DNA of 32,000 bases from Alphaproteobacteria bacterium (GCA_017475605.1 JAFVFD010000005.1:180001-212000), one strand, 5' to 3'. Positions 1,210-25,452 are shown, numbered from the stretch's first letter. Notes: generated by a model not told the origin, from the sequence alone. Program-made: numbers and translations.

Positions 1210-1302
1210 CCCCCGCCCATAACTTTTATGGCGGTATTTTAGCCCAAAACCGTTATTTTTTCGTTTGCACAAAATCAAATAATGCTTAATAATAAGGGCA
1301 CT

Positions 1303-3282
1303 ATGGTTGAAAAGAACACACACACATATGATGCATCAGATATTCAGGTCTTAGAGGGCCTTGAACCCGTCCGTCTGCGCCCAGGTATGTATATTGGGGG
1401 GACGGACGAAAAGGCTTGGCACCATCTTCCTGTCGAAATATTGGACAACTCGATTGACGAGGCGGTGGCGGGTTTTGCAAAAAAAATATCTGTTGATTTG
1501 ATTGACGCTAAAACAATTGAAATTACCGATGACGGTCGTGGTATTCCGGTTGACGAACACCCAAAATACCCCGGTAAATCGGCCCTGGAAGTGATTTTAA
1601 CCACCCTGCATTCTGGGGGCAAGTTTAATAATAATGTTTATAAAACCAGTGGCGGCTTGCATGGTGTTGGTTCCGCGGTCGTGAACGCATTATCGTCGGA
1701 AATGATCGTAACTATTTCGCGCGATGGGTACGAATGGCACCAGACTTTTTCCCGCGGTAAAACAACATCACCAATTACGCGCGGTGCGGCGACAAAGGCG
1801 CATGGAACGAAAATTCGCTTTACCCTGGATGATGAAATATTTGGCGCAAATGCGGTATTCAAACCTATCAAGATTTATCGTATGGCGCGGGCCAAGGCAT
1901 TCCTGTCGCGTGGTGTAAAAATCGATTGGCGGTGCAATCCGGCATTACTTACCGAAGATATGGGTATTCCAGACACCACAACATTTTACTATGCAAATGG
2001 GGTGGCGGACTTTTTGGCGGAAAAAACTGATTCAGAACCCAAAATCTTGCCAAAGATATTCAGTGGTTCGGTTGATTTTCCGGACGATACCGGTCGCGTT
2101 GAATGGGCATTAACGATATTAACAGACGAAAACGGTGCTGCATCGGACGATGGGTTCTTTGCATCGTACTGTAATACAATTGCAACAATTGACGGCGGCA
2201 CACACGAAAGCGGTTTTAAATCTGCTATTACCCGCGGCATCAAGGCCTATGGCGAAAAGGTTAATAACAAGGCTGCGGCAAATATCATCGGCGAAGATGT
2301 GTTTGATTCCGTTGCAGCGATTGTATCTGTGTTTTATAAAACACCACAATTCCTGGGTCAGACCAAGGAAAAATTGTCCAACCCAGAAATCGCGCGTTAT
2401 ACCGAAAATGCACTGCGCGACCCATGGGAAATGTTCCTGGCGTCCGACCCGAAAACCGCAAACGCAATATTGGACTTTGTGATAAACCTGGCGAATGCCC
2501 GTATTAAAACAAAACAGGTCAAGGAAATCGCCCGCAAAACCCCAACCAAACGTGCACGTATGCCGGCGAAATTGGCGGACTGCTCTAAACATGGGGTCGA
2601 AGGAACAGAATTGTTTATCGTCGAAGGTGAATCGGCGGGCGGTACCGCGAAACAGGCACGCGAACGCGCAACCCAGGCAATTATGCCCCTGCGCGGCAAG
2701 GTTTTAAATGTTATGTCTAATTCCGATGAACGCTTTAACGCGAACAAGGAATTAAATGAATTGATTGATATTATTGGTGCCGGCACAGCAAAAGATTGGG
2801 ACGAAACAAAATTACGTTATGAAAAAATCATTGTTATGACCGATGCCGATGTTGATGGTTCGCATATTGCATCGTTGTTGATGGCGTTTTTCTATCAATA
2901 TATGCCGCAATTGATTTATGGTGGGCACCTGTATCTGTCCTGTCCGCCACTTTATAAATTAACATGTGGAACCGAATCGGTCTATGTTGATACGGACGAA
3001 GAATTAGAAAACCTGACAAACGGTAAATACAAAAACAAACGGGTCGAAATTTCACGATTCAAGGGTCTGGGTGAAATGATGCCAAATCAGTTACGGGAAA
3101 CAACTATGTCGCCCAAGACACGCCGTTTGATTCGTGTTGATTTACCGCCAAAAACAGACGATGGAATCGAAGATACGGAAAAAACCCGCACCATCGTTTC
3201 AGAATTGATGGGTAAAAAACCAGAATTTCGATTCAAATTTATCACCGAACATGCACAGTTTGTAAAAGACCTGTTCGTATAA
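1303..3282 (+). CDS. parE: Type IIA topoisomerase B subunit, most likely topoisomerase IV subunit B (ParE)
   Basis: GHKL ATPase N-terminus (VLEGLEPVRLRPGMYIGG, ILDNSIDEA). TOPRIM motif ELFIVEGESAGG, plus IIVMTDADVDGSHI and PPLYK motifs. At about 660 aa it lacks the long insertion typical of proteobacterial GyrB, which favours ParE. The ATG at 1303 has an AAGGG Shine-Dalgarno; the ORF-track ATG at 1282 has none. Confidence 0.8.
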   Translation: MVEKNTHTYDASDIQVLEGLEPVRLRPGMYIGGTDEKAWHHLPVEILDNSIDEAVAGFAKKISVDLIDAKTIEITDDGRGIPVDEHPKYPGKSALEVILTTLHSGGKFNNNVYKTSGGLHGVGSAVVNALSSEMIVTISRDGYEWHQTFSRGKTTSPITRGAATKAHGTKIRFTLDDEIFGANAVFKPIKIYRMARAKAFLSRGVKIDWRCNPALLTEDMGIPDTTTFYYANGVADFLAEKTDSEPKILPKIFSGSVDFPDDTGRVEWALTILTDENGAASDDGFFASYCNTIATIDGGTHESGFKSAITRGIKAYGEKVNNKAAANIIGEDVFDSVAAIVSVFYKTPQFLGQTKEKLSNPEIARYTENALRDPWEMFLASDPKTANAILDFVINLANARIKTKQVKEIARKTPTKRARMPAKLADCSKHGVEGTELFIVEGESAGGTAKQARERATQAIMPLRGKVLNVMSNSDERFNANKELNELIDIIGAGTAKDWDETKLRYEKIIVMTDADVDGSHIASLLMAFFYQYMPQLIYGGHLYLSCPPLYKLTCGTESVYVDTDEELENLTNGKYKNKRVEISRFKGLGEMMPNQLRETTMSPKTRRLIRVDLPPKTDDGIEDTEKTRTIVSELMGKKPEFRFKFITEHAQFVKDLFV

Positions 3283-3383: not shown

Positions 3384-3410
3384 AAAAAATGCGCCGATGG
3401 CGCATTTTTT
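3384..3410. terminator. Bidirectional intrinsic terminator between convergent parE and the 594-aa gene
   Basis: AAAAAAT-GCGCC-GAT-GGCGC-ATTTTTT: a GC stem flanked by an A-run and a T-run. Confidence 0.75.
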
Positions 3411-5193
3411 ATCTTATTCCAACCATAAATTCATCACCCCAATCGGCAACACGTTGGCCACCAACGGTGCAACTTATATCTTCAAATCCGGTCTTAACCT
3501 GATTCTTCTTTACAACATTACTGGTTATCAAACCGCCCGCGGTACCCAATACAACACCCGCAATAGAATCAGATGCAAGACGCGCACCGTTAAAGTTACC
3601 TTCGGACGTTTTCCACACACTGATTTTTAACCCTGCCATTATATCGTCCAATTTCTTTGATGCGCTTTCTATCGCCGCACTGGATTTTGTTACACGTTGT
3701 CTGCGCGCGGCTTCTTCGCGTGCCGCAATTGATTCCGCAGACTCTTCGCATTTTTCACCAGTCCATTCATAACCAACTTTCTTACAATTACATACCTTGG
3801 TTACTGAATTCCAAACTGTATCGCCAGCTGCTTCACAGGCCGCAGCATCCGCAGACTTTTGACATCTTCCCCCAACAAATACCATATCGGTGCCATTACA
3901 CAAACACGCTGTGCCGTTCCAATAAGCACCGGTTTCAGATGCAGCTTCACACGCACGACGACGTACGGCTTCATCTTTTTCGACACAGCCCACCGCCGCA
4001 CTTTCGAATTTAAAGTCGGCATTTCTGCATTCGCATTTGCCATTGCTTAACACAATGTTCTTTTCTGCGCGACACGTACAAGCATTATTTACCCATTCAC
4101 CACCAGATTCAATACAGGCTTTTTTGGCCGCACTTTGCTGCTGTTGTTGGCGTTGACGTTGCTGCTGCCGTTGTTCGTCGCGACGTACAGCACTTGTCGT
4201 TTTTTCACATTTATCCGCGGCCGCATTCCATGCAAAATCTGCACCTTCTTTGCATTCGCAACGATATCCATCAGATGCCAACACCAATCCTTTTACATCC
4301 GCACAGACACAAGATAAATTGGCTTCGTCATATATGCCGCCGCTGTTTGTGCATAATGTCTTATAGTCTGCATCTTGGATACATTTACCCCCAGACTGCA
4401 CCCAACCAGCATTGCACGTGTATTTATAACAGATATCACCATTATCAACAACCCAACTTGATGCGTTATTGTGGCTTGACGAACGATTCGGATTAACAAT
4501 TTCCAAAGTCGCGCGACCCGCACGAACATCCACCGACAAATCAACCGATCCATTGCAAACATATGGATCTCGGTGTGTCCATGTCTTTCTTGCTGGGTTG
4601 CATTCCCAAACCTGATTTTCTATATCATCCTGTTTGCCGATATGAGCACGTTTCATAAATATACGATTTCCCGCACGACAAGATGCTTTTTGTCCCTGAT
4701 CACAGACATAGCAACCATTTCCACCAGATTCGATTAAATGTGTATTATTTTTACATTTTTCAACAGACAACTGGGTGCAACTTTGTGCCATATCTTCAAC
4801 GCATTTTCCATTTTTATATGAATACCCATCATCACAATAATAACAAGCGGTATTTTTATCACGATATTCGGTCAAGGCAACATTACCCGTTCCATCAATA
4901 TTTGGCTTCGCAATAGATGCGGTTCTTATATGCAAGGTTGCATTGCCAATAAACGGGCGGCTTTCCCAACCAACCCAATCTTCATTTGGGTTATCACAAA
5001 ACTGGACTTTTTCTGCTGATCCCAATTCAGGATTACCATTTCTATCATTTTTGCATTGCTTAACCTGCCAATATGAGCCCTTGTTTTCAAGGAACCATTG
5101 ACCAGCCTCCACACCATACGTTGAACAATCTGTTGCAAACGCCGGCGCAGCAATAAACGCACAACACAAAAACATAAGTATTTTTTTCATCAT
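3409..5193 (-). CDS. Secreted Cys-rich modular protein with C-terminal Gly-zipper-like anchor, 594 aa, unknown family
   Basis: Signal peptide MMKKILMFLCCAFIAAPAFA. About 37 Cys in the mature part by my count. Four tandem modules such as ACIESGGEWVNNACTCRAEKNIVLSNGKCEC. Gln/Arg run RRDEQRQQQRQRQQQQQ. Hydrophobic segment IAGVVLGTAGGLITSNVV about 35 aa from the C-terminus. Strong SD AAGGGGGAG. Confidence 0.85.
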   Translation of the reverse strand: MMKKILMFLCCAFIAAPAFATDCSTYGVEAGQWFLENKGSYWQVKQCKNDRNGNPELGSAEKVQFCDNPNEDWVGWESRPFIGNATLHIRTASIAKPNIDGTGNVALTEYRDKNTACYYCDDGYSYKNGKCVEDMAQSCTQLSVEKCKNNTHLIESGGNGCYVCDQGQKASCRAGNRIFMKRAHIGKQDDIENQVWECNPARKTWTHRDPYVCNGSVDLSVDVRAGRATLEIVNPNRSSSHNNASSWVVDNGDICYKYTCNAGWVQSGGKCIQDADYKTLCTNSGGIYDEANLSCVCADVKGLVLASDGYRCECKEGADFAWNAAADKCEKTTSAVRRDEQRQQQRQRQQQQQSAAKKACIESGGEWVNNACTCRAEKNIVLSNGKCECRNADFKFESAAVGCVEKDEAVRRRACEAASETGAYWNGTACLCNGTDMVFVGGRCQKSADAAACEAAGDTVWNSVTKVCNCKKVGYEWTGEKCEESAESIAAREEAARRQRVTKSSAAIESASKKLDDIMAGLKISVWKTSEGNFNGARLASDSIAGVVLGTAGGLITSNVVKKNQVKTGFEDISCTVGGQRVADWGDEFMVGIR

Positions 5194-8117: not shown

Positions 8118-8972
8118 TTATTTTGCATTTACTGTCTTGGTTGCCAGTAAATAGTCATATTTGATTGTTTCACAATCTTCTGGTTTTGTCGCGCCACTTT
8201 CCTCCCACACTGAACTTTCGCATTCACGCTTTACATTCTCTAAATGGCGCATCACTTCGTTATATTGTGACGGGTTGTCCTTTTTCAAAACAAGCAATTG
8301 GGAACGCAACAGTTCATCACCAGACAATGCTTTCTGTCCTTCGACCTTGCCACCAATCAACTTATTTCCAAACAATTCCATGGAACCGACACCCAATGCC
8401 GCGCCACCAACTGCACCACCGACGGTTGCCCATGTACGCGCATTCTTCTTGGCATCCAAAATGCGTTTTTCCAGTTTGTTCGCATCAACCCATGAACCGC
8501 ATGTGATATTACGGCCCATTTCAAAATATTGACCACGAACATCAGCCAAATCAATCTTGGCATCAGACGATTTCAGATTTACCAATACAAAGCATGTATT
8601 ATTTTCTGGGTTTTCTGTATCCTCTACCATGGTGGAATAATCGTTAATATTGCTGTACCGCGATGCCCAAACAAAAGTATTGCCGACACCAATATTATTT
8701 TGCAAACATGCCGCACGTTCCTTTTCGCGCTTATCTTTTTCTGGTTGCGCCGGGGTTGTATCTTTTTCTGGTTCGACACGAACACTTGATTTATCGTTAA
8801 GGTTTTCCGTCGTTATTGCATTGGTGGTATTCACGACCATAGAAGCCATTTTTGCGGGGCTTGTTCTGTTCGCACTGCCAACAGGGCTTTTAACCATTCC
8901 AACACGACCAGTTGCCGCAAAGGCCGGCACTGTCATCATACACAAAACCATAAAAGATATTAAGTGTTTCAT
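8118..8972 (-). CDS. Secreted or membrane protein with Gly-zipper segment, 284 aa, unknown family
   Basis: Signal peptide MKHLISFMVLCMMTVPAFA. Charged linker PEKDTTPAQPEKDKREKER. Glycine-zipper-like segment WATVGGAVGGAALGVGSMELFG, followed by an approximately 75-aa charged tail. Confidence 0.8.
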   Translation of the reverse strand: MKHLISFMVLCMMTVPAFAATGRVGMVKSPVGSANRTSPAKMASMVVNTTNAITTENLNDKSSVRVEPEKDTTPAQPEKDKREKERAACLQNNIGVGNTFVWASRYSNINDYSTMVEDTENPENNTCFVLVNLKSSDAKIDLADVRGQYFEMGRNITCGSWVDANKLEKRILDAKKNARTWATVGGAVGGAALGVGSMELFGNKLIGGKVEGQKALSGDELLRSQLLVLKKDNPSQYNEVMRHLENVKRECESSVWEESGATKPEDCETIKYDYLLATKTVNAK

Positions 8973-10067: not shown

Positions 10068-11081
10068 TTAATTAAACCAGATGAATACCTGGCCGGTTGG
10101 TGGTGTACCTGACGGCTGGGTCGTAGAAACGGTATTAAACCTTACATCATCACCCGCTGAAACCGTTGTTGATGTTGTACCCACCGGCAATCGCGCAACA
10201 TCCATCGTGCCCGATGTAATATTAGCTGCGTTCGTTGTATCAACATTCTGAACATTCCCAAGGCCCACATCTGATTTAGTTACGGTAACATCACTTGATA
10301 ACGCATGTCCGTTAACGGTTCTTGTGGTTGGCACCGCATCAACATCTGCGGCTGTTGTCGGCACAGTAATATTGATTGATTTATTTGCGGCTGCATTAGT
10401 TGTGAACGTATCAACCGTCGTTCCATTTTTCTGTATTGTTATCGTGGAATCATTAACCGTCGGAATTGTTGGTTTATTCAAGATTTGTGCGACACCACTG
10501 GTTGCATTCCAATCACTATTTACCTGTGCCGCTGGTATCGTCGGTTTATCGGACAGATCATTATACGAACCACTGGTGGCAACCGCCGCTAAATCATCAG
10601 GTTGCACTGCACTGGCTGCCAACGTACCCTGGGCTGCTGTTGCAAAATCAGTTGCACTTGCCGATGCCGCCGTCCCCAATGTTGGTTTATTCAAGATTTG
10701 CGCGACACCACTGGTTGCATTCCAATCACTATTTACCTGTGCCGCTGGTATCGTCGGTTTATCGGACAAATCATTATATGAACCACTGGTGGCGACCGCC
10801 GCTAAATCATCAGGTTGCACTGCACTGGCTGCCAATGCCCCCTGGGCTGCTGTTGCGAAATCAGTTGCACTTGCCGATGCCGCCGTCCCCAATGTTGGTT
10901 TATTTTTAATAAAATCGGCCGCCGTTGAATCTGTCTGCGCCCAATTTGCCTGGACAGCATCCGGCAAATCAAGTGATCGGATAATAGATTGAACATATTG
11001 AACACTGGCAATATCAGCACGCACTGAGCCAACCAGCATACAAACAAAACCTGCAAAGATAATCCGAGCCGCCATTCTCAT
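10068..11081 (-). CDS. Signal-peptide-bearing phage-tail-fibre-like repeat protein, 337 aa
   Basis: Signal peptide MRMAARIIFAGFVCMLVGSVRA. Motifs recurrent in phage tail-fibre proteins (from memory): DWNATSGVAQILNKPT, SGSYNDLSDKPTIP, VNGHALSSDVTVTKSDVGLGNVQNVD. Contains a 71-aa unit duplicated in tandem. Confidence 0.85.
   Translation of the reverse strand: MRMAARIIFAGFVCMLVGSVRADIASVQYVQSIIRSLDLPDAVQANWAQTDSTAADFIKNKPTLGTAASASATDFATAAQGALAASAVQPDDLAAVATSGSYNDLSDKPTIPAAQVNSDWNATSGVAQILNKPTLGTAASASATDFATAAQGTLAASAVQPDDLAAVATSGSYNDLSDKPTIPAAQVNSDWNATSGVAQILNKPTIPTVNDSTITIQKNGTTVDTFTTNAAANKSINITVPTTAADVDAVPTTRTVNGHALSSDVTVTKSDVGLGNVQNVDTTNAANITSGTMDVARLPVGTTSTTVSAGDDVRFNTVSTTQPSGTPPTGQVFIWFN
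10468..10905. repeat. 213-bp tandem direct repeat, about 2.05 copies, in frame within the CDS
   Basis: Copy 10468-10680 versus copy 10681-10893 shows 8 differences in 213 nt by manual alignment. A third copy starts at 10894 and diverges after about 11 nt. Confidence 0.95.
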
Positions 11082-11292
11082 ATATCTTTAATCCAACTTC
11101 CCCCTTAGGAAAACACCCTTATAAACAAGTAAACGCACCACAAAACCACACAGCCATCAAAACCCAAAAAAAGCGCGATTTTCTGCGGTTTTCCCATCGT
11201 TTTCAAGGTATATTTTCCAGGTCCAGATGTCCTCTCCTATGTCTACTGTTAAAAGTGTAGTAAAAAACAGCAAGTCAAGTAAAGCGAAAAAT

Positions 11293-11325
11293 AAAAAAAA
11301 TCTGCCCTTTTGGCAGATTTTTTTT
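11293..11325. terminator. Intrinsic (bidirectional-looking) terminator after the secretin gene
   Basis: A8-ATCTGCC-CTTTT-GGCAGAT-T8, placed 13 nt downstream of the secretin stop. Confidence 0.75.
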
Positions 11326-11337
11326 AACACTGTTAAC

Positions 11338-12966
11338 TTAATTCAGCGGTGCACCCCAATGTTGCTGAATTGAACGTTCGGCATCCATCGGGCTGACCAA
11401 CACCTGTGGTGTCAAAATAACAACCAACACATCACGTTGTGCCGATGATTCACGCGAACCCGACAATGCCAAAAAGTCAGGATCCCCCAAACCATAACGG
11501 GTGTCGCTGTTATTCTGTTTTTCAAAGCCAGAAACCACCAACATTTGTCCAGATTCCATAATCACTTCCTGCATGAACGAACGTTCTTCAACCTCGGGCA
11601 ACTGCAATGTAACCTCGCCAATTGTTTGGGTTGACATTTTTAACAATTCACGCACAGACATTCTGAACAGCAGCAAGATTTTTCCATTTTCCAAAACATT
11701 CGGCAACAACTGCATTGAAAAACCTGTTTCCAAATCGTCCTGGTCAACAGTTGACGATTCAACCGTTGTGAAATTACGTGATTCAAAACGTTTGATATAG
11801 CCGGTTGTACGGGTGTTATTTACTGGTGCAACACGATTATTACGTGTCGTTACACCAACATTTGTAACCAGCGATACCTTACCCTGCTTTGCCAAAGATT
11901 GAATCAATGCGTTTGTTCCAGCCAAACCAGCCAAAGAACCATTCTTTATATCGTTCTGGTTATAGGCCCCGGCGACTTCTGAACCATTAACTGTATGTGT
12001 TGCCCCGGTAAGCGCTGAAACATCATTTGACAAAACAGCAATATTCATCGCACTGGCTTCGGTTGTGGCCAAATTATTCTTTGGATTTGCAACCAAGTTC
12101 AACCCAGACGTAGAATTAATTGCCGCCGCCAAGTTCAACCCAAATGCAGAATCATTAGATATAGATACCTGTAATACCTTTACATCGATTGTAACCAATT
12201 GCGACAAACGTTTATTCTGACGTTCAATATATTCACCAACACGCGCCAAAACGGACGGTGGTGCGGTAACGGTAATTGTTCCCAAACTGCGCGACACCGT
12301 AAAGTCGGCATTTGCGCTTTTACCTATAATAGACGATATTGCACCTTCGACTTCATCCCATTCTTTTAATGTAGATTCCAACGCGACCTGGTTACCGTCA
12401 TCTGTATTTACCGCAGTTTGATATGAAACCTCGGTCCCTAATGCATACAATGTAAATGTACGAGTTTCTGTTTCATAGAAGACAATAGATGTTTTATCAA
12501 AATACCATAACAAATCTAAATCTGTCGCAACCTGGGATAACAAACCCGACAATTTACCGGTATACGCGATATTCATTGTCTTTTTAAGTTTTTCGCCGTT
12601 AACCTGGCTGTCAATTTTAACCGGCAAGCCTGTGATAGAGTTTATATCATTTGCCAAAACCTGTAATGTAACAGGTTCATTTAATAATATAGTAATACCT
12701 GAATCTGTTTCAAATTGCGCCGGTAATTTGTTTTTATGTTCCAGAACCGTTGATTTATTACCCAGCCAAATACCTTCGGACATAGAAACGGTATCACCGC
12801 TGGCCACCTTGGCACGCGGATTTTTTGACATTTCAAACGCATCGTACGCATTAACAAAGTCCTGATCGACCGATGCGGCAACCTTGGCTGATTCCCGTCT
12901 TGTACAGCCGCCCAGCACCCCAATAGCCAACGCGAACACAACGAAATATCTTGTAAGTTTTTTCAT
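11338..12966 (-). CDS. Outer-membrane lipoprotein secretin, type IVb pilus PilN/BfpB/TcpC-like, 542 aa
   Basis: Lipobox LGGC (MKKLTRYFVVFALAIGVLGGCT). Secretin domain onset VTIDVKVLQVSISNDSAFGLNL. C-terminal secretin signature GQMLVVSGFEKQNNSDTRYGLGDPDFLALSGSRESSAQRDVLVVILTPQVL. SD TAGGAG, 26 nt after the upstream gene. Confidence 0.7.
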   Translation of the reverse strand: MKKLTRYFVVFALAIGVLGGCTRRESAKVAASVDQDFVNAYDAFEMSKNPRAKVASGDTVSMSEGIWLGNKSTVLEHKNKLPAQFETDSGITILLNEPVTLQVLANDINSITGLPVKIDSQVNGEKLKKTMNIAYTGKLSGLLSQVATDLDLLWYFDKTSIVFYETETRTFTLYALGTEVSYQTAVNTDDGNQVALESTLKEWDEVEGAISSIIGKSANADFTVSRSLGTITVTAPPSVLARVGEYIERQNKRLSQLVTIDVKVLQVSISNDSAFGLNLAAAINSTSGLNLVANPKNNLATTEASAMNIAVLSNDVSALTGATHTVNGSEVAGAYNQNDIKNGSLAGLAGTNALIQSLAKQGKVSLVTNVGVTTRNNRVAPVNNTRTTGYIKRFESRNFTTVESSTVDQDDLETGFSMQLLPNVLENGKILLLFRMSVRELLKMSTQTIGEVTLQLPEVEERSFMQEVIMESGQMLVVSGFEKQNNSDTRYGLGDPDFLALSGSRESSAQRDVLVVILTPQVLVSPMDAERSIQQHWGAPLN

Positions 12967-12992
12967 ATATTTTCTCCTACGGCCCTGATATT

Positions 12993-13937
12993 TTATTCTT
13001 CTGTGGTCGAAACTACTAATACACGATTTCCTTTATAGAACTTCGCATACGGAATTGGTGTAGCACGTTCAAAATTACGCACCAACGCAGATGCCACATC
13101 AACAAAGCGTCCCTTGAATACAGCACTTGCCTCGATTGGATATTCACGTGTTGTCGTCCATACCAAATCCCAGCCTTCTTTGTCGCACCAGGATTGTAAA
13201 ACTTCGCGTAATGTTTGACCACTTGCCACAACCCATGAACGCACCTGGTCCACCATTACCGCCGGCGCTTCGGCATCTGCGGAAACATTAACACCAATTT
13301 CAGATTCCAAACCACTTAATGCAGCATTCACATCATCCTGTTGTTCGGCGGTATATGCCGCAATTTCTTCCTTGCTTAAACCAATCTTTGCCAAATACGC
13401 GGTATAACCATCGGCATATTTTACACAGTTTTTACGTCCTGAACGCGACAATGTCAAAACATCACCACCATCGTCTTCCAATACTTCGCGATGCAACAAC
13501 GGCATTTCAGAACCATTTTCGCATTCGTCATCAAAGCCAACCGGAATTTGATTTCCATGTAACATGTTCGCGCCACCAGACCAGCCATTAAAGTCGCCAC
13601 GAACACCACCCATATTGAAATTATTTTCAACGACCAAATCTGCACCAATTTTTGACACGATACGGATATTGTCTGATTGTTTGTTTTTGCTGCACATGCC
13701 GTCATCACAACCAACTTCTACGTCGGCATCAGTACCCGCGATTGGCCATGCCGGCACTTCTACCTGGGCATATTCCTGGGTATCGACAGCCTCGACATAC
13801 TGGTTTTCATCAACGGTTTTATCTTCGGTATAAAAAACCTCTGATGTAACCACCTGGGGCATGACAGTTTCAGTAGCGGCAAAGCAGTAACCCGCCGCAC
13901 AACAGAACATTGCTGCTATTAAAATCTTGCGGAACAT
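12993..13937 (-). CDS. Secreted protein with C-terminal TcpQ/PilL-type domain, 314 aa
   Basis: Signal peptide MFRKILIAAMFCCAAGYCFA. The C-terminal roughly 85 aa (WVVASGQTLREVLQSWCDKEGWDLVWTTTREYPIEASAVFKGRFVDVASALVRNF...AKFYKGNRVLVVS) fit the TcpQ-domain pattern W-v-G-tL-L-W-GW-l-W...f-G-f-A...Y-N-vl-V. The N-terminal about 220 aa are unrecognised. Confidence 0.6.
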   Translation of the reverse strand: MFRKILIAAMFCCAAGYCFAATETVMPQVVTSEVFYTEDKTVDENQYVEAVDTQEYAQVEVPAWPIAGTDADVEVGCDDGMCSKNKQSDNIRIVSKIGADLVVENNFNMGGVRGDFNGWSGGANMLHGNQIPVGFDDECENGSEMPLLHREVLEDDGGDVLTLSRSGRKNCVKYADGYTAYLAKIGLSKEEIAAYTAEQQDDVNAALSGLESEIGVNVSADAEAPAVMVDQVRSWVVASGQTLREVLQSWCDKEGWDLVWTTTREYPIEASAVFKGRFVDVASALVRNFERATPIPYAKFYKGNRVLVVSTTEE

Positions 13938-13973: not shown

Positions 13974-14002
13974 ATTATATCAATTTGACCGAATCTGTGC
14001 AA
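13974..14002 (-). promoter_or_regulatory. Putative sigma70 promoter for the TcpQ-like/secretin bicistron
   Basis: The minus strand reads TTGCAC-N17-TATAAT, followed by an approximately 30-nt leader with SD AAAGGAAG. Confidence 0.5.
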
Positions 14003-14118: not shown

Positions 14119-14667
14119 ATGGAAAACACATTGATTTTGGTTGGTATTTTGTTGGTTTTGGTCCTTGGCATCACCGTTACGGTGGCGATATTTCGTATGG
14201 GCGCACGAATTCAAAATATAAACAAGACATTGGAATATCAATATAACCTTATTGTAAAAATGCAATCTGTGTTAAAAACAAAATCTGCGACAAATGCCGT
14301 TGCTGAAAATGCCGAAATGATTTATCAAGATTTATTACAAAGCCTTATTCCAATCATGGCGGCGATAAGTGTTATGCCGCGCAATACATCTGAACACCCA
14401 TTGTGGCGTGCATTGGGCGGAATTATGGACGAATACGCAAAAAATCCATTCGCATTGGAAAAATTGCGTCGCGCCATCAAACTTGATGCCGAGGTTGCGC
14501 GTAACGTCGATAATTATATTTCCCGCGCTGACCGCTTGTTACGTCATCTTAATGCGACCGAACCAGATGGCATTTTGGCGGCAACATTTACGAACGGCTT
14601 GCTGGGGCAATCATTGACTTTCTTTACCCAGGCCCAAACCCTGGCAACCCAGGAATCAAATGAGTAA
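14119..14667 (+). CDS. Single-pass membrane protein, 182 aa, unknown function, translationally coupled to sufB
   Basis: N-terminal TM helix LILVGILLVLVLGITVTVAIF followed by a helical soluble part. Its stop overlaps the sufB start (ATGAGTAA, 8-nt overlap). SD GGGGGT. An extended -10 element TGTTATACT lies at 14074-14082. Confidence 0.8.
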   Translation: MENTLILVGILLVLVLGITVTVAIFRMGARIQNINKTLEYQYNLIVKMQSVLKTKSATNAVAENAEMIYQDLLQSLIPIMAAISVMPRNTSEHPLWRALGGIMDEYAKNPFALEKLRRAIKLDAEVARNVDNYISRADRLLRHLNATEPDGILAATFTNGLLGQSLTFFTQAQTLATQESNE

Positions 14668-16687: not shown

Positions 16688-17722
16688 ATGCATACAATGA
16701 TATTCTTTTTATTATTGATTGGGTTTTTATGGTTGGGACGTTCAATCTTTATTCCATTTTTAGTGGCACTGTTTTTATGGTATATGATAAACGTTATCGC
16801 CAGCGGCTTTCGTCAATTCATGCCCCAATATAAAAAGCCGTCTTTTATGGGACGAACATTTGATTGGGTATCGCGCATATTATCTGTTGGGGCAATAGTT
16901 TTTTCTATATACCTGTTCGCCACACACATTCATCCGATGTTTGCTCAATTACAGGCTGCCCTGCCGGTATTACAGGATAAATTATTTACCGTAATTGACT
17001 ATATGTCCGATTCACTGGGCATGTCGTTGGATGCAGATATTTTACCGAACTTTGCGCAAATTGCCGCGTCGGTTGGTGCATCGGCGGCATCTATTGTTGC
17101 ATCCGTTGGAATGATATTGATTTACATATTATTTCTTTTTGTTGAACAGGAAACATTTGGTAACAAAATTAAAAATATGTTTGCCAATAAACGCCAATCC
17201 AAAAAATATGCGTATATAATTGAAAGTGTAAATAAAAACATGAAACGTTATCTGTTTATGAAAACGATTATATCGGGAATGACTGGGCTTTGTGCATATG
17301 TTTGGATGCGAATGATTGGTTTGGAATTCGCGGGTGCCTGGGCATTTTTGATGTTTATTATGAACTATATTCCAACAATCGGTTCCATTATCGCATGCAC
17401 ATTACCAATATTATTTGCCCTGGCCGTTGGGTCATCTATACACCTGGCGATACTTACCGCCGTTGGTTTAATTGGTTTGGAAATATTCTTCGGAAATATA
17501 TTGGATCCAAAGTTAACGGGAAAAACATTAAACCTTTCCACATTGGCAATATTAATCAACTTAGTATTCTGGGGAATGATATGGGGTGTGGTTGGAATGT
17601 TCCTTTCTGTGCCATTATTGATGATAATATTTATCACCACCGCCCAGTTTGATTCCACGCGTCCGATTGCGGTATTGTTATCTGAAAATGGAACGATACC
17701 GGATATTCGTGATGAAGAATAA
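16688..17722 (+). CDS. AI-2E family transporter (PerM/YhhT-like permease), 344 aa
   Basis: Polytopic membrane protein with the family block FIMNYIPTIGSIIA and the typical C-terminal helices. It starts 2 nt after the sufC stop. Confidence 0.8.
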   Translation: MHTMIFFLLLIGFLWLGRSIFIPFLVALFLWYMINVIASGFRQFMPQYKKPSFMGRTFDWVSRILSVGAIVFSIYLFATHIHPMFAQLQAALPVLQDKLFTVIDYMSDSLGMSLDADILPNFAQIAASVGASAASIVASVGMILIYILFLFVEQETFGNKIKNMFANKRQSKKYAYIIESVNKNMKRYLFMKTIISGMTGLCAYVWMRMIGLEFAGAWAFLMFIMNYIPTIGSIIACTLPILFALAVGSSIHLAILTAVGLIGLEIFFGNILDPKLTGKTLNLSTLAILINLVFWGMIWGVVGMFLSVPLLMIIFITTAQFDSTRPIAVLLSENGTIPDIRDEE

Positions 17723-17732
17723 AACACATAAC

Positions 17733-17780
17733 AAAAAAACGCGCTATGTACAGCAATTCGTGTACATAGCGCGTTTTTTA
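17733..17780. terminator. Bidirectional intrinsic terminator (permease / ruvX)
   Basis: A7-CGCGCTATGTACA-GCAATTCG-TGTACATAGCGCG-T6, a 13-bp perfect stem. Confidence 0.8.
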
Positions 17781-17791
17781 TATACATATTT

Positions 17792-18238
17792 TTACAATCG
17801 TTTTATCACCGCGATTGCGTTTTCTAAAATCACACGCGCCGATTCAGAATCTAATTTTTCTTTTGCTGATTTTTTATCATGGAAACCATTTTCATCGGCG
17901 GCGGCGCTACTGGTTAACGTTTCATCAATAAGGCAAATTGGTAAATCAATATATTCCACAATTTTATTCGCCACATCCCGTACCATTTTTGTGGTATCTG
18001 ATTCAGAACCATCCATACGCAACGGCAACCCCATAACAACACCAACGACACCCGATTGATTTATACAATCGGCAATCTTTTTTACCATATCTTCGCCCCG
18101 CCCCGCGACTATTACAGGACGCGAAAAAACAAAATCACGCTTTTCATCCGATACGGCAACCCCGGTGCGACGCGCGCCCCAGTCAATTCCTATAACGCGT
18201 CCAGCGCGCGGAAAATCCTTGAAATCTGGCATAATCAT
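17792..18238 (-). CDS. ruvX: Holliday-junction resolvase-like / pre-16S rRNA nuclease RuvX (YqgF), 148 aa
   Basis: RVIGIDWGARRTGVAVSD N-terminal catalytic motif, plus GVVMGLPLRMDGSES and ICLIDETLTS. The start at MIMPDF (18238) fits family length better than the ORF-track 18283. Confidence 0.88.
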   Translation of the reverse strand: MIMPDFKDFPRAGRVIGIDWGARRTGVAVSDEKRDFVFSRPVIVAGRGEDMVKKIADCINQSGVVGVVMGLPLRMDGSESDTTKMVRDVANKIVEYIDLPICLIDETLTSSAAADENGFHDKKSAKEKLDSESARVILENAIAVIKRL

Positions 18239-18246
18239 TGTATAAT
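18219..18246 (+). promoter_or_regulatory. Putative sigma70 promoter for gatC
   Basis: TTGAAA-N16-TATAAT, about 30 nt upstream of the gatC ATG and lying within or abutting the ruvX 5' end. Confidence 0.5.
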
Positions 18247-18261
18247 CTACCCTGTGTTTTA

Positions 18262-18290
18262 ATAATAGGATTGAAAATGGCATTTAGCAA
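18262..18290 (-). promoter_or_regulatory. Putative sigma70 promoter for ruvX, overlapping the gatC 5' end
   Basis: The minus strand reads TTGCTA-N17-TATTAT, about 23 nt upstream of the ruvX ATG. Confidence 0.4.
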
Positions 18291-18573
18291 GCAACAATTA
18301 CACAAATTCGCCGATCTTATTCATATCGATATTACCGACGAAAAATTGGAATCTATGAACATTGATTCCGTTATTGATTGGTTGGACAAATTACAGAAAA
18401 TTGACACAACCGGGGTGGAACCAATGCTTAACCCGGCATCACACGATTTACCACGCCGCGCGGACACGGTAACCGACAACGCACCACGTGCTGACATATT
18501 AAAGAACACGCCTGACACAGCCGGTGTTTCACGCGGATATTTTGCTGTACCAAAGGTTATGGATGGTGAATAA
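18277..18573 (+). CDS. gatC: Asp/Glu-tRNA amidotransferase subunit C, 98 aa
   Basis: MAFSKQQLHKFADLIHIDITDEKLESMNIDSVIDWLDKLQKIDTTGVEPM fits the GatC pattern. SD AGGA 7 nt upstream. Confidence 0.9.
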   Translation: MAFSKQQLHKFADLIHIDITDEKLESMNIDSVIDWLDKLQKIDTTGVEPMLNPASHDLPRRADTVTDNAPRADILKNTPDTAGVSRGYFAVPKVMDGE

Positions 18574-18574
18574 A

Positions 18575-18952
18575 ATGGCAAAAAATATTGGACATTTAAT
18601 TTCTTTGAATGACGAATACTTGTATTCGGCGGCGCATGGCGAAATGTATGCGCCGTTACGTGTAAACGAACGTGCCGTACAGAAACTGCAACGCGCAATG
18701 GAAACAAATACACCAGATGAAAAATCTTGTATACGTACAATTGCGGGCATCTGGTACAACGGTAAGTTTATGTTGGCAACCGAATTTCGCGATATAACAA
18801 AATGTACCGCCAACCTGCGTAATCCATCGCACCCGGCCAAAACGGAATTATGTTACAAAACATTGTGTAATGGTAAATGTCGCGATGCGTTTATGCGTGC
18901 GAATGTTGCACAATATATATTGCCTGAATTATACGGAACAAAACAAAAATAG
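18575..18952 (+). CDS. Hypothetical Cys-containing protein, 125 aa, inserted between gatC and gatA
   Basis: The ATG lies 1 nt after the gatC stop, with a GGTGA SD-like element. The stop is 8 nt before the gatA ATG. Contains CYKTLCNGKC (C-x4-C-x3-C) plus two further Cys. No family recognised. Confidence 0.6.
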   Translation: MAKNIGHLISLNDEYLYSAAHGEMYAPLRVNERAVQKLQRAMETNTPDEKSCIRTIAGIWYNGKFMLATEFRDITKCTANLRNPSHPAKTELCYKTLCNGKCRDAFMRANVAQYILPELYGTKQK

Positions 18953-18960
18953 GAACAACG

Positions 18961-20427
18961 ATGATCGATCTTACTATACATGTGGCATTGGAAAAATTAA
19001 AGAAAGGTGAAATAAGCGCAACCGAATTAACACGCGCGCACCTTGACCGCATTGAAAAATTGGGTGGTGATTTGAACGCATATATCACCACCACACCAGA
19101 ACGCGCACTGGCGGATGCCGCGGCGGCGGACGCGCGTTATAAAAACGGCACGGCGCGCGCATTAGAAGGCATTCCTATCGGCATGAAAGATTTGTTTGCA
19201 ACACGTGGTATTCGCACAACTGCGGCTTCACACATGTTGGAAAATTTTGTTCCAGAATACGAATCAACTGTTTCACAAAAATTTATTGATTCAGGTTCTG
19301 TATTGCTTGGCAAAACAAACCTGGACGAATTCGCGATGGGCACATTCAGTAAAACATCCTATTTTGGTGCGCCGGTAAACCCATGGCAAATCGAACGCAA
19401 GTTAACCGCCGGTGGCTCGTCGGGTGGTTCTACATCTGCGGTGGCGGGGGGACTGGCCATGGGTGCAACCGGGACAGATACCGGTGGTTCAATTCGTTTC
19501 CCGTCGGCAATAACTGGCCTTGTTGGTATGAAACCAACATATGGTCTTTGCTCTCGTTGGGGCTGTGTTGCGTTTGCATCGTCCCTTGATACACCGGGTC
19601 CAATTGCGCGTACTGTTGATGATGCGGCATTATTGTTATCTGTTATGGCGGGGCACGATGAAAAAGATTCAACAAGTGAAAGTGCCGGATTTAATGCACA
19701 TACACCACTTGAATCGATATTGGGTGATGGTAAAAAATTGCGCATTGGTGTTATTCGTGAATTGAATGATGTGGCAATATCGGACGATATGAAAAAATTA
19801 TTTAATGCGCGTATTGCCGATTTGAAATCGTTGGGGGCGGAAATAGTAGAAGTATCTATTCCAAACATTTTGGACGCGTTGGCGGCATATTACATCATCG
19901 CCCCGGCCGAGGCATCATCCAACCTTGCCCGATATGACGGCATGCGTTATGGTCTGCGGGTCGAAGGTTCCGATTTAATCGACACATATAAAAAGACACG
20001 CGCCGCCGGCTTTGGAACCGAGGTTCAGCGTCGTATGATTGTCGGAACGGCGGTGCTGTCCAGCGAATCGTATGAAGTCTATTTTATGCAGGCCGCACGT
20101 GTTCGCCGTATGATTGCGGACAGTTTCAATGCCGCGTTCGAACAATGCGATTTGATTATCTGTCCAACCAGCAGTGGTACCGCGATGCCGCTTGATTCCG
20201 ATTTATCACCATTGGAATATTACGCGTTGGATATGTTTACGGTTGCAATGAATCTGGCCGGCATTCCGGCATGCAGTGTTCCGGCGGGATTGGCGGGGAA
20301 CGGTTTGCCACTGGGGTTACAGGTTGTGGGAAAACGTTTTGATGATTTGCGCGTTTTACAATTGGCCAAACACATCGAACAATTCGCAGGTGTTGATAAC
20401 CGACCAACCAAGATAATGGGAAAATAA
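18961..20427 (+). CDS. gatA: Asp/Glu-tRNA amidotransferase subunit A, 488 aa
   Basis: Amidase signature: GIPIGMKDLF, GKTNLDEFAMG, GGSSGGSTSAVA, GTDTGGSIRFPSA. Confidence 0.96.
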   Translation: MIDLTIHVALEKLKKGEISATELTRAHLDRIEKLGGDLNAYITTTPERALADAAAADARYKNGTARALEGIPIGMKDLFATRGIRTTAASHMLENFVPEYESTVSQKFIDSGSVLLGKTNLDEFAMGTFSKTSYFGAPVNPWQIERKLTAGGSSGGSTSAVAGGLAMGATGTDTGGSIRFPSAITGLVGMKPTYGLCSRWGCVAFASSLDTPGPIARTVDDAALLLSVMAGHDEKDSTSESAGFNAHTPLESILGDGKKLRIGVIRELNDVAISDDMKKLFNARIADLKSLGAEIVEVSIPNILDALAAYYIIAPAEASSNLARYDGMRYGLRVEGSDLIDTYKKTRAAGFGTEVQRRMIVGTAVLSSESYEVYFMQAARVRRMIADSFNAAFEQCDLIICPTSSGTAMPLDSDLSPLEYYALDMFTVAMNLAGIPACSVPAGLAGNGLPLGLQVVGKRFDDLRVLQLAKHIEQFAGVDNRPTKIMGK

Positions 20428-22594: not shown

Positions 22595-23896
22595 ATGCAG
22601 AAATACTTTATTCAAACTTTTGGTTGTCAAATGAACGTCTATGACGGGTGGCGCATTGCGGCAATGCTTAATGCGCATGGGTTGCATCAGACAACCGATG
22701 TTGCCGATGCCGATATTATTATACTAAACACATGTGCCGTTCGTGCCAAGGCAACCGATAAAGTATATTCTGCATTGGGACGAATTCGCCTGGCTAAAAA
22801 ACCGAACGCCCTCATGGGAATTGTTGGGTGTGTTGCACGTGAATCTGGTGCCGATGCGTTCAAACGTGTACCGGACCTGAACTTTGTTTTGGGGCCACAA
22901 AGTTATCATAAATTGCCTGAAATATTAAATGACCCTGACACGCGCTTGTTTAATATTGAATTATCCGGGTTGGAAAAATTCGATGAAATGCCCAAACTTG
23001 AAAAATCACCATTGGTAACATATGTTCCTATCCAGGAAGGTTGTAACCATTGTTGTACATATTGTATTGTGCCATATACACGTGGTCGCGAAATTTCACG
23101 CAGTTTTGCCGACTGTGTACGTGATACAGAAATGGCGGCAAAAACAGGTGCTGTTGAAATCTGCTTTTTGGGGCAAAACGTAAATGGATATAAATATACG
23201 GATGAAAATGGAAAAATATATCGTCTGTCTGATTTAATTCGCGCGGCGGCAAAAATCGATACAGTAAAGCGTATTCGTTTCACATCAAGTTATCCAACCG
23301 AAATGACCGACGACTTGATTGAAATGTTTGCACAGGAACCTAAATTATTGCCCTTTCTTAATATGCCAATTCAGAGTGGTTCGCCCGATGTATTAAAGCG
23401 CATGAACCGTCCGTATGATTTGGAACAATATTTGGGAATCGTTAAAAAATTAAAGGCGGCGCGCCCAGATATTCAAATATCATCCGACTTTATTGTTGGG
23501 TTCCCCGGCGAAACAGATGATGATTTTGAACAAACCCTGCAAATAGCCAGAACAGTTAAATATATCAATTCATATTCGTTCAAATATTCGCCCCGACCAC
23601 ACACCTCGGCGGCAATTATGCAGGACCAGATACCCGAAAACATAAAGTCCAAACGGCTGGCAATTTTAGATGCCGAATTAAACGAAATTCAACGCGCATT
23701 TAATGAAAGTTGCGTGGGTAAAACCCTGCCCTGTTTATGCGAAGGTGTGGATAAAACCGGACGACACCTGGTATATCGTACACCATATATGCAACAATGT
23801 ATTGTGGCATGCCCCGCGGGCGATGCCCCACAAATCTGTAATATTGAAATTACCGCCGCAAACAAGGCATCACTGCGTGGCAAAATCACAGATTAA
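22595..23896 (+). CDS. miaB: tRNA-2-methylthio-N6-dimethylallyladenosine synthase MiaB, 433 aa
   Basis: UPF0004 N-terminal domain (FIQTFGCQMNVYD, ILNTCAVR). Radical-SAM motif CNHCCTYCIVPYTRGRE. C-terminal TRAM domain. Confidence 0.94.
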   Translation: MQKYFIQTFGCQMNVYDGWRIAAMLNAHGLHQTTDVADADIIILNTCAVRAKATDKVYSALGRIRLAKKPNALMGIVGCVARESGADAFKRVPDLNFVLGPQSYHKLPEILNDPDTRLFNIELSGLEKFDEMPKLEKSPLVTYVPIQEGCNHCCTYCIVPYTRGREISRSFADCVRDTEMAAKTGAVEICFLGQNVNGYKYTDENGKIYRLSDLIRAAAKIDTVKRIRFTSSYPTEMTDDLIEMFAQEPKLLPFLNMPIQSGSPDVLKRMNRPYDLEQYLGIVKKLKAARPDIQISSDFIVGFPGETDDDFEQTLQIARTVKYINSYSFKYSPRPHTSAAIMQDQIPENIKSKRLAILDAELNEIQRAFNESCVGKTLPCLCEGVDKTGRHLVYRTPYMQQCIVACPAGDAPQICNIEITAANKASLRGKITD

Positions 23897-25452
23897 AATC
23901 GAAAGATTCCATTGATAGATGCGGTACACGATACGCCAAAATCGTTATCGTAAATTGCACCCAACCGCACATCCACACCGGCGGAATCAACCAAAGACCA
24001 AACAGACATACCAACACCAATTCCCACAACCGCATCGGTCTGTACAAATGTGCGTAATGTGTAATCATAACGCAAACCGTCAAATTCATATTTATAGCCA
24101 GCTTCCGCCCCTGTACCAACAAACACATTCATATCATTGGAACTTGCTATTGCCATATATTCCGCCCCGGCCAAAACAAACGGCATGATTGTATATTCAT
24201 TCAAAATATTAAAATGGCGCGCATATTCACCCGCCACATGTAATGTCATACCATTTGGGTTATCAATAACACGTTCACCATCAAAGACAGGGCCAACATT
24301 GAATGAAGATATATCCGCACCAATGTATGCCCGCATAAAATCTTTATCCGACAAATCGTATTGTCCACGCGCACCGACCCCATACGATATACCACGATAA
24401 TCATTTATATCATCTGAATAATCAGTATTCAAAACATAACCCGATAATTCCATGTGTAATTTATCAAAAACATTAAAGCGAACATTTGGTTTTATACCAC
24501 TAATTAAGACATCATCTGAATAAATTATTAATGGCGATATTCCAAATACGGTAAAATCGTCTATGTACATGGTTTCCGCCATTTTATAACGATACAATAA
24601 ATTCATTGGCCTTAATAATTTTATCGGATTGGTACGAACACTTTTTGATAAAATATTATCTATTTCACCAATAGTTCTTGCCCTATCTAGTTTTGAAAAC
24701 AGTTTTGTATCATTTCCACCAGCACGTAAATCATTAAGGAAACGTCCCATATCATTATTCAATATACGCGCATAATCTGTTGACCGCGCAAGACGCATAT
24801 ACACATCATCGTCCATCACAAATGTTTGTAATATATGTAATCTGTCCAGCGATGGCGAATCTGCATAAACGGCACCTTCGCCATTAACATCTGAAAACAG
24901 CAAGAAATCACCACTTGGCACATCGTCAAATACCAGCATTGTATTGCCATGTAATGTTACATCTGATAGCACCACAAAGTCAGATGTGCGCCCAGCATTA
25001 AGTTCTACATTATTTAACTCAATCGTATTTGCATTATCCGCAATATTAATAACTGTATTAAAGGTTATATCATGGCCATTTTGTACGCGAACATCATACC
25101 CATCACTAAGTCCAATATCAGTGGCCGCCGCATCTGATGATATAACCTGAACCAACCTTGCGCCCGGATGCATGGTAACAGTCGCATCAAACACACCCGT
25201 ATTTTCCAATTCCAGCACACAGTTTTCACATATTTCAATACCGCCATGAATTGTGCCAAAATTAGTGATATTAAGACTGTCAGAAACGACGATATTATGC
25301 GCTTCGAAACTGATACCGCTTGGCACAATCAAATTGTCAACGATTATATAATTACCAAACGCAGTAATATTATTTGCTAGTTCTGTGGCGGCCGGCGCGC
25401 AATGCGTGTAAAGTATGGCAACGAACAATAAAACATATGCCAGGGTTCTCAT
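23893..25452 (-). CDS. Autotransporter-like outer membrane protein (type Va), 519 aa
   Basis: Signal peptide MRTLAYVLLFVAILYTHCAPA. An approximately 220-aa Asn/Val/Asp-rich passenger domain. The C-terminal region shows alternating-hydrophobic beta-strand patterning and ends in INGIFRF (terminal Phe). Confidence 0.7.
   Translation of the reverse strand: MRTLAYVLLFVAILYTHCAPAATELANNITAFGNYIIVDNLIVPSGISFEAHNIVVSDSLNITNFGTIHGGIEICENCVLELENTGVFDATVTMHPGARLVQVISSDAAATDIGLSDGYDVRVQNGHDITFNTVINIADNANTIELNNVELNAGRTSDFVVLSDVTLHGNTMLVFDDVPSGDFLLFSDVNGEGAVYADSPSLDRLHILQTFVMDDDVYMRLARSTDYARILNNDMGRFLNDLRAGGNDTKLFSKLDRARTIGEIDNILSKSVRTNPIKLLRPMNLLYRYKMAETMYIDDFTVFGISPLIIYSDDVLISGIKPNVRFNVFDKLHMELSGYVLNTDYSDDINDYRGISYGVGARGQYDLSDKDFMRAYIGADISSFNVGPVFDGERVIDNPNGMTLHVAGEYARHFNILNEYTIMPFVLAGAEYMAIASSNDMNVFVGTGAEAGYKYEFDGLRYDYTLRTFVQTDAVVGIGVGMSVWSLVDSAGVDVRLGAIYDNDFGVSCTASINGIFRF

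Follow-up and report, generated by a model that had tools for sequence, protein, structure and literature searches.

The window analysed here is a 32,000-nucleotide stretch of DNA from Alphaproteobacteria bacterium (GCA_017475605.1 JAFVFD010000005.1:180001-212000), and the subject of this analysis is a two-gene operon at positions 11,338 to 13,937 that encodes a TcpQ-domain protein followed by a lipoprotein secretin. This pair very probably represents the first two genes of an ordinary type IVb pilus operon, now separated from the remainder, which lies elsewhere in the genome of its host, Candidatus Enterousia. The bicistron and its control elements are arranged as follows.

12993..13937, minus strand: partner gene, encoding a 314-amino-acid periplasmic secretin partner of the TcpQ/BfpG/PilL family, with a signal peptide, an N-terminal region and a C-terminal TcpQ domain.
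13008..13241, minus strand: TcpQ domain, residues 233-310 of the partner, from PF10671 and the alignment to 9u5s_R.
12967..12992, minus strand: intergenic spacer of 26 nt with the Shine-Dalgarno sequence GTAGGAG for the secretin gene, from sequence reading.
11338..12966, minus strand: secretin gene, encoding a 542-amino-acid type IVb lipoprotein of the PilN/BfpB/TcpC type, from TIGR02520 and the alignment to 9u5s_A.
12904-12906, minus strand: codon of the secretin lipobox residue Cys21, in the sequence VLGGC.
11398..11895, minus strand: C-terminal pore domain of the secretin, residues 358-523, from PF00263.
13974..14002, minus strand: sigma-70-type promoter TTGCAC, 17-nt spacer, TG-extended TATAAT, from sequence reading and a promoter scan.
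11292..11326, minus strand: intrinsic terminator at the end of the bicistron, a 15-pair hairpin followed by a T-run, from sequence reading and a scan.

A preliminary description of this DNA had reported two minus-strand genes 26 nt apart with a Shine-Dalgarno sequence ahead of the second, and the coordinates, the lengths of 314 and 542 amino acids and the GTAGGAG motif were all checked. The separate promoter and terminator that it assigned to the pair were both found again by scan, and its flanks are confirmed, with sufB and sufC on one side and a tail-fibre-like gene, rpsT and plsY on the other, where dprA also lies.

The family calls made for the two proteins are likewise upheld by profile searches. 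Specifically, the partner matches PF10671 (TcpQ) at 65.1 bits against a cutoff of 27 (E 6.3e-18), and the secretin matches PF00263 at 51.7 bits against a cutoff of 27.5 (E 9.9e-14), covering profile positions 2-168 of 169. The top curated family of the secretin is the type IVB protein PilN, TIGR02520 (241.8 bits, E 1.2e-71), followed by MshL at 97.8 bits, and no GspD model appears among its curated-family matches. The lipobox residue Cys21, as expected for a lipoprotein secretin of the PilN/BfpB/TcpC kind, is invariant in 22 homologues, down to 30% identity. At the level of solved structures, secretin residues 33-523 align in three stretches to residues 14-528 of BfpB (PDB 9u5s_A, E 3.2e-39), while the TcpQ domain of the partner aligns to the BfpG chain of the same entry (9u5s_R, E 2.3e-13). 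Because the two proteins match both chains of one solved complex, the pair is assigned as a type IVb secretin complex. A TcpQ-family gene directly upstream of the secretin gene is also found in Methylovorus, R64-type and alphaproteobacterial clusters. By these profile and structural matches, the pair is a genuine type IVb secretin with its TcpQ-domain partner.

The N-terminal region of the partner (~210-220 amino acids, residues 22-230) has no family match, and the AlphaFold model of the whole protein is unusable, with a mean predicted local distance difference test score (pLDDT) of 36. This region carries the motifs PAWPIAGSDAD, WSGGANM and MPLLHREV..DDGGDVL, which recur in relatives of 31-44% identity. 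Several short motifs and cysteines are kept throughout Enterousia and in the sister lineage L139, and positions Cys18, Phe19 and Pro65 also in the 31-44% relatives. Judged by this conservation, the N-terminal two thirds of the partner are not low-complexity filler.

The remainder of the machine is located on a congeneric contig. Joint Genome Institute contig Ga0310690_10000071 (223,596 bp; locus L121) holds the Enterousia pair at ~48-51 kb, with a secretin 92% identical to that of the window, and at ~177-181 kb it carries the gene run DUF374-lpxK-lpxC-160-aa lipoprotein-PilO2-PilP-T2SSE-T2SSF, with gyrB further downstream. Here PilO2 matches PF06864 at 38.4 bits against a cutoff of 26.7 (E 8.7e-10), PilP matches TIGR03021 at 37.1 bits against a cutoff of 34.65, and the T2SSE ATPase and T2SSF platform protein are recognised at E 4.2e-63 and 2.5e-22, respectively. 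The pair and this secretin-less PilO2-PilP-ATPase-platform operon are therefore carried by one contig at a distance of ~127 kb. In the sister lineage L139, in which the secretin, TcpQ protein, SufB and ATPase are 67.6%, 49%, 65.6% and 69.5% identical to the Enterousia proteins, the order is contiguous: sufC-sufB / TcpQ-secretin-PilO2-232 aa-ATPase-platform ... gyrB. On its left the L139 operon is bordered by sufBC, as is the Enterousia pair, and on its right by gyrB, as is the ATPase operon of Enterousia. Moreover, all 11 of the split-type loci with enough upstream DNA share the junction DUF374-lpxK-lpxC-lipoprotein / PilO2, with ATPases 72-83% identical to that of L121, and both halves have diverged from L139 to a matching degree (ATPase 69.5%, secretin 67.6%). 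The simplest reading of these gene orders is one ancestral break between the secretin gene and pilO2 in the Enterousia lineage. The L139 flanks match those of the two Enterousia halves, and for this reason a chimeric assembly of Ga0310690_10000071 is unlikely.

Relatives outside Enterousia show the unbroken arrangement. Among the 1.84 billion cluster representatives searched, the Enterousia secretin cluster (84%) is followed by a gap to relatives at ~40%. The three nearest non-Enterousia relatives carry a chromosomal operon, TcpQ-secretin-PilO2-variable protein-T2SSE-T2SSF, among housekeeping genes. Their secretins are 33-37% identical to one another and 38-41% identical to the Enterousia secretin, while their ATPases are 51-56% identical mutually and 29-36% identical to the R64 or Methylovorus ATPases. 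Since the Enterousia secretin is no more distant from these relatives than they are from one another, an orthologous ATPase was expected at ~50% identity. A metagenome scan with an alignment of the three ATPases returned 241 relatives, of which the best 80 (51-61% identical), among them L121, were taken as loci. In 44 of these 80 the secretin and the ATPase-platform genes occur together, nearly all as a complete TcpQ-to-platform operon, and many of these loci carry pilin genes with the signature ...SGRSMVEMLGVLAIIGVLSVGG after the platform gene.

Closer to the pair itself, the searches were negative. No pilus or type II secretion system (T2SS) machinery other than the pair is encoded within the 32-kb window. 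Type IVb seeds from R64 and Methylovorus recovered no ATPase, platform protein, peptidase, PilO2 or PilP from 1.65 Mb of Enterousia DNA around the pair, which covers this single neighbourhood, and closer seeds likewise returned nothing from the same DNA. GspC, GspL and GspM are absent from both the pair locus and the ATPase-platform locus. PilO2, PilP and the order of the genes are specific to type IVb systems.

A pilin gene was also found. Eight loci with rearranged neighbours carry an open reading frame of 153-158 amino acids that starts ...QESGRSMIEMLGVLAIMGVITVGAIG, in which position -1 is Gly and position +5 is Glu. In the 154-amino-acid form, the N-terminus QESG/RSMIEMLGVLA (slash between -1 and +1) is invariant, the leader is short at 6 residues, and two C-terminal cysteines are also invariant. 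The gene is conserved genus-wide, with 833 homologues, and usually occurs as a single gene flanked by uvrC and an rluA-type gene, shortly after dnaJ. In the strain of the window, represented by locus L089 (99.94% identical over a 5,053 bp overlap), the pilin gene starts ~2.2 kb outside the left edge of the window and ~13.5 kb away from the secretin gene. The earlier statement that no pilus or T2SS machinery lies nearby consequently holds within the 32-kb window and fails just beyond its left edge. The pilin matches the major pilins encoded in reference type IVb clusters (E 1e-5 and 1e-3) as well as the in-operon pilins that stand just after the platform gene in relatives (E 5e-5 down to 2e-15), and the top four PDB matches of its AlphaFold model (pLDDT 74) are to the type IVb pilus of enterotoxigenic Escherichia coli (9iuf) and the toxin-coregulated pilus (TCP) filament of Vibrio cholerae (8uhf), at match probabilities of 0.99-1.00. 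The NCBI pipeline names some copies 'prepilin-type N-terminal cleavage/methylation domain-containing protein' and others 'type II secretion system protein'. On these sequence and model matches, the 154-amino-acid protein is a type IVb-fold pilin and is taken as cognate to the pair, as one part of the split-pilus reading that is held very probable as a whole. Three tandem open reading frames (67-76 amino acids) beside the pilin gene in some species were considered as Flp pilins and rejected, as they show no motif and are absent from the strain of the window.

Several points weigh against the assignment of the pair to a split type IVb pilus. The secretin falls under the TIGR02520 equivalog cutoff (241.8 against 287.65 bits), and the pilin falls under the Pfam N_methyl cutoff (15.5-18.4 against 21.2 bits) and carries an unusual +1 residue, Arg. 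The inner-membrane operon is known from the contig of a congener, not from the window's own strain, and a single contig directly links the two halves. In ~2.9 Mb of DNA representing a few genomic neighbourhoods, neither an R64 PilU seed nor a scan for GxGD-type motifs detected a prepilin peptidase; the operons of the relatives also have none, so such a gene would be encoded elsewhere. In addition, the published Rs-D84 survey gives type IV pili for another lineage only (PMC12306168).

The host of the window is Candidatus Enterousia, a genus placed in the order Rs-D84 (PMC12306168), with a genome below 1 Mb. A reference-genome scan with a 7-sequence secretin alignment returned 474 relatives; the best 80, taken as loci, all belong to Candidatus Enterousia or gut Alphaproteobacteria at 84-96% identity and include one closed chromosome of 958,618 bp. 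A ruminant gut metagenome contains an identical protein pair on a scaffold of 364 kb. The TcpQ-secretin pair is intact and in the same order in 82 of 82 loci. Across these loci the secretin has a mean identity of 86.4% (minimum 83.9), above the same-locus means of DnaA (67.6), SufB (78.7), GatA/B (83) and RpsT (83) and also above those of SufC, PlsY and DprA; a GyrB-family protein (91.5) is the sole compared neighbour with a higher mean. Conservation above that of most neighbouring housekeeping proteins is unusual for an outer-membrane protein. The TcpQ partner has a mean identity of 71% over the 82 loci.

The control elements of the bicistron are conserved to differing degrees. The 30-nt promoter element CTTGCAC[A/C]GATTCGGTCAAATTGnTATAAT, including its spacer, is kept in 79 of 81 Enterousia loci, whereas the sequence on either side of it has drifted, and by this pattern the promoter is a phylogenetic footprint. 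Promoter-like sites over the whole region number 16, against 12.2 +/- 3.5 expected, and are therefore not enriched. The 17-nt promoter spacer, GATTCGGTCAAATTG..., is nearly invariant in those 79 loci; it may double as a regulator-binding site. The gap between the two genes varies from 26 to 37 nt among congeneric loci, with a Shine-Dalgarno-like motif in 75 of 81, and a hairpin with a T-run 3' of the secretin gene is found by a crude test in 47 of 81.

The components suggest the following mechanism. The secretin would be exported, acylated on Cys21 and, by homology, multimerised into a gated outer-membrane channel. BfpG binds the BfpB secretin and is required for secretin assembly (PMC12531336); by extension from BfpB-BfpG, the TcpQ domain, with its N0-like fold, would bind the N-terminal lipoprotein-linked region of the secretin near the N3 ring and would be needed for assembly. 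The 154-amino-acid type IVb-fold pilin, encoded ~13.5 kb away in the same strain, would be polymerised by the PilO2-PilP-ATPase-platform module, which lies ~127 kb away in the congener, and the fibre would leave through the secretin channel. The ancestor is envisaged as one operon, sufB / TcpQ-secretin-PilO2-PilP-ATPase-platform(-pilin) ... gyrB, which a rearrangement in the Enterousia lineage would have cut between the secretin gene and pilO2, leaving the pair with its own promoter beside sufBC. Enterousia is a probable obligate symbiont, for which the pilus would most likely serve to attach the bacterium to partner or host cells; DNA uptake and effector secretion are less likely roles.

The slot 3' of the secretin gene bears directly on whether the pair could stand alone. 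The preliminary description had presented the pair as an orphan, self-contained unit and had considered it a possible minimal secretin channel for the export or display of a dedicated substrate, with the tail-fibre-like neighbour as cargo. The neighbouring product (window 10068-11081) does resemble phage tail fibres (PHROG 9729, E 3e-29) and has a signal peptide, the window contains no other machinery, and the slot often holds same-strand secreted proteins. Proteins of this family, 120-337 amino acids long, occupy the slot in only 16 of the 82 loci, against a pair that is universal, and a terminator lies between the neighbour and the secretin gene; elsewhere the slot is taken by unrelated secreted proteins of 100-1,300 amino acids, many of them rich in cysteine or repetitive. 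By this comparison the slot is a variable one with no conserved partner, and the tail-fibre-like neighbour was rejected as the secretin substrate on account of its patchy distribution. On the simplest reading of the gene orders, the slot would mark the breakpoint of the ancestral pilus operon. Within the tail-fibre-like gene of the window, two 225-nt stretches (10467-10691 and 10680-10904) form a tandem repeat with 96% identity. Furthermore, the same genus possesses a secretin-less PilO2-PilP-ATPase-platform operon and a cognate pilin, and to our knowledge no secretin functions without an inner-membrane partner machine. A dedicated minimal channel is accordingly considered highly improbable, and the self-contained unit of the preliminary description is given up in favour of another possibility that it had raised, the outer-membrane half of a split pilus encoded elsewhere, as illustrated by the split operon on Ga0310690_10000071 and its intact form in L139. 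A type IVb cluster without a secretin of its own, which had been named as pointing to an ordinary split operon, is thus present in an Enterousia congener, and the proposed comparison of synteny in related genomes supports the pair throughout and not the adjacent gene. A further explanation, in which the pair is the non-functional leftover of a lost pilus operon, draws on the strongly reduced genome of less than 1 Mb and on the broken operon itself. Both reading frames are nevertheless intact at every locus, the promoter is retained in nearly all of them, and the same integrity and conservation extend to the pilin and to the second half of the machine; the high conservation of the secretin, above most of its housekeeping neighbours, therefore leads us to rule out a decaying remnant as scarcely credible.

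The two remaining alternatives accept the pilus machinery and concern its use. In many bacteria DNA is taken up by means of type IV pili, and the secretin and pilus could serve mainly to take up DNA together with DprA and ComEC, supplying nucleotides or genes. In support of such a conduit, dprA lies 4 kb away and is syntenic with the pair in 52 loci, the relative L095 has ComEC one gene past its operon, and Rs-D84 genomes lack nucleotide biosynthesis (PMC12306168). Against it, dprA also occurs widely in bacteria that are not competent, and its closeness to the pair is explained by the location of both near dnaA. A ComEC seed from L095 found no ComEC or ComEA in the Enterousia DNA searched, which represents part of the genome; known competence pili are of type IVa or Com-type and not of type IVb; and the Enterousia locus has one ATPase, with no dedicated retraction motor seen. 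Uptake of DNA as the main function is therefore regarded as unlikely. Type IVb systems such as TCP and CFA/III secrete soluble proteins, and the machine could instead export a soluble effector or colonisation factor by way of the secretin, in the manner of TCP and TcpF. The minimal gene set with its single ATPase and the T2SS name that the NCBI pipeline gives to some pilin copies are compatible with secretion. None of the three loci has a conserved candidate for a secreted substrate beside it, the pilin model matches type IVb major pilins that form fibres, and the T2SS families GspC, GspL, GspM and GspD were not detected, which makes secretion in place of a fibre a rather improbable alternative. 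The split type IVb pilus remains the preferred reading of the pair.

Among characterised systems, the closest structural counterpart is BfpB-BfpG of the bundle-forming pilus (BFP) of enteropathogenic E. coli (PDB 9u5s, 17:17; PMC12531336). Both combine a lipoprotein secretin with a non-pilotin N0-like partner, and the secretin alignment is full-length, running from the N-terminal lipoprotein-linked region through the periplasmic domains to the pore domain. The two differ in that identity is only ~25-30%, that the Enterousia partner has 314 amino acids with an extra conserved N-terminal region of ~210 amino acids, whereas the BfpG chain has 114, and that BFP is encoded by one 14-gene plasmid operon, whereas the Enterousia genes are chromosomal and dispersed. 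The thin pilus of R64 (IncI1) and type IVb pili borne on integrative and conjugative elements resemble the Enterousia system in that PilN is the best curated family of the secretin, in the order TcpQ-family, secretin, PilO2, PilP, ATPase, platform, which is that of the relatives' operons, and in PilL (355 amino acids), which is also long with a C-terminal TcpQ domain. In contrast to R64, which resides on a conjugative element, the Enterousia system is chromosomal among housekeeping genes; its secretin is 26% identical to plasmid PilN, its pilin has the 6-residue leader and Arg at +1, and PilM, the PilT transglycosylase, the PilU peptidase, the PilV adhesin and the shufflon are not seen in Enterousia. 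The TCP of V. cholerae (TcpC-TcpQ) shares the Pfam TcpQ family of the partner and a pilin, TcpA in 8uhf, matched by the pilin model, but its genes, including those for TcpB, F, J, R, S and T, form one operon on a pathogenicity island, and TcpC gave no sequence-level match to the secretin in the PDB search.

The true closest relatives are the chromosomal type IVb-like operons of gut and environmental Alphaproteobacteria (L093, L095, L096, L139 and the human-gut loci L149-L166), with secretins 38-68% and ATPases 51-70% identical and the pilin signature SGRSM[IV]EMLGVLAI. In these the genes are contiguous, whereas in Enterousia they are split into at least three loci, and several have a second PilT-like ATPase and two pilin genes that are not seen at the Enterousia loci. 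A widespread human-gut alphaproteobacterial lineage (GC ~0.48; L103, L106-L108, L110, L111, L113-L115, L118, L149-L170) carries the full operon, accompanied by one or two genes for pilins and by a further, smaller ATPase, maybe PilT-like; a second ATPase of this kind was not seen at the Enterousia loci. In L095, ComEC is encoded at 17496-19133, one gene after the pilus operon, with a type IV secretion system coupling protein and a TrbC-like gene just upstream of it.

Other genes of the region were recorded alongside the pair. At window positions 14119-14667, the gene hyp182 encodes a 182-amino-acid protein with an N-terminal transmembrane helix; the gene runs divergently to the TcpQ gene, and 8 nt of it overlap the start of sufB. 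It is present in 81 of 82 loci at 77% identity and has no family match, and in L139 an unrelated 111-amino-acid open reading frame takes its position. As a pilus component hyp182 was rejected, given the lack of support, the overlap with the sufB start and the unrelated frame in L139. A 666-amino-acid 'GyrB' at 1282-3282 is 39% identical to the 890-amino-acid GyrB with a hook domain near the detached pilus operon (L121 13426-16098); by this comparison it is probably the topoisomerase IV subunit ParE rather than gyrase B. Window reading frames without a Pfam match lie at 3409-5193 (594 amino acids), 8118-8972 (284), 23893-25452 (519) and 25547-26113 (188). The first of these is poorly conserved, in 6 loci only, and the second is syntenic in 52 loci at 54% identity. 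In some Enterousia species, near the pilin locus and between dnaN and ppa, a peptidase M48-domain protein of ~1,560 amino acids is encoded (L086 14866-19566; also L087 and L088), which is very large for a genome below 1 Mb.

An apparently orphan component in a 32-kb window of a rearranged, reduced genome can be half of an ordinary machine, and the pair serves as a caution in this respect. The type IVb pilus predicted here, complete-looking and strongly conserved, is so far unreported for Rs-D84 (published survey, PMC12306168). Enterousia and other Rs-D84 members are widespread gut and rumen bacteria with genomes below 1 Mb and no known way of interacting with partners, and the pilus would offer a handle on how such uncultured symbionts attach to or feed from other cells. 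We tentatively propose, at less than even confidence, that this seven-gene type IVb pilus, distributed over three loci, may be the main organelle of partner or host contact of an obligate symbiont of less than 1 Mb that has no standard nutrient transporters, possibly acquiring DNA or nucleotides. If so, it would parallel the type IV pili of Patescibacteria, and the range of type IVb pili would extend from the colonisation factors of pathogens and the mating pili of plasmids to a core, vertically inherited symbiosis machine.

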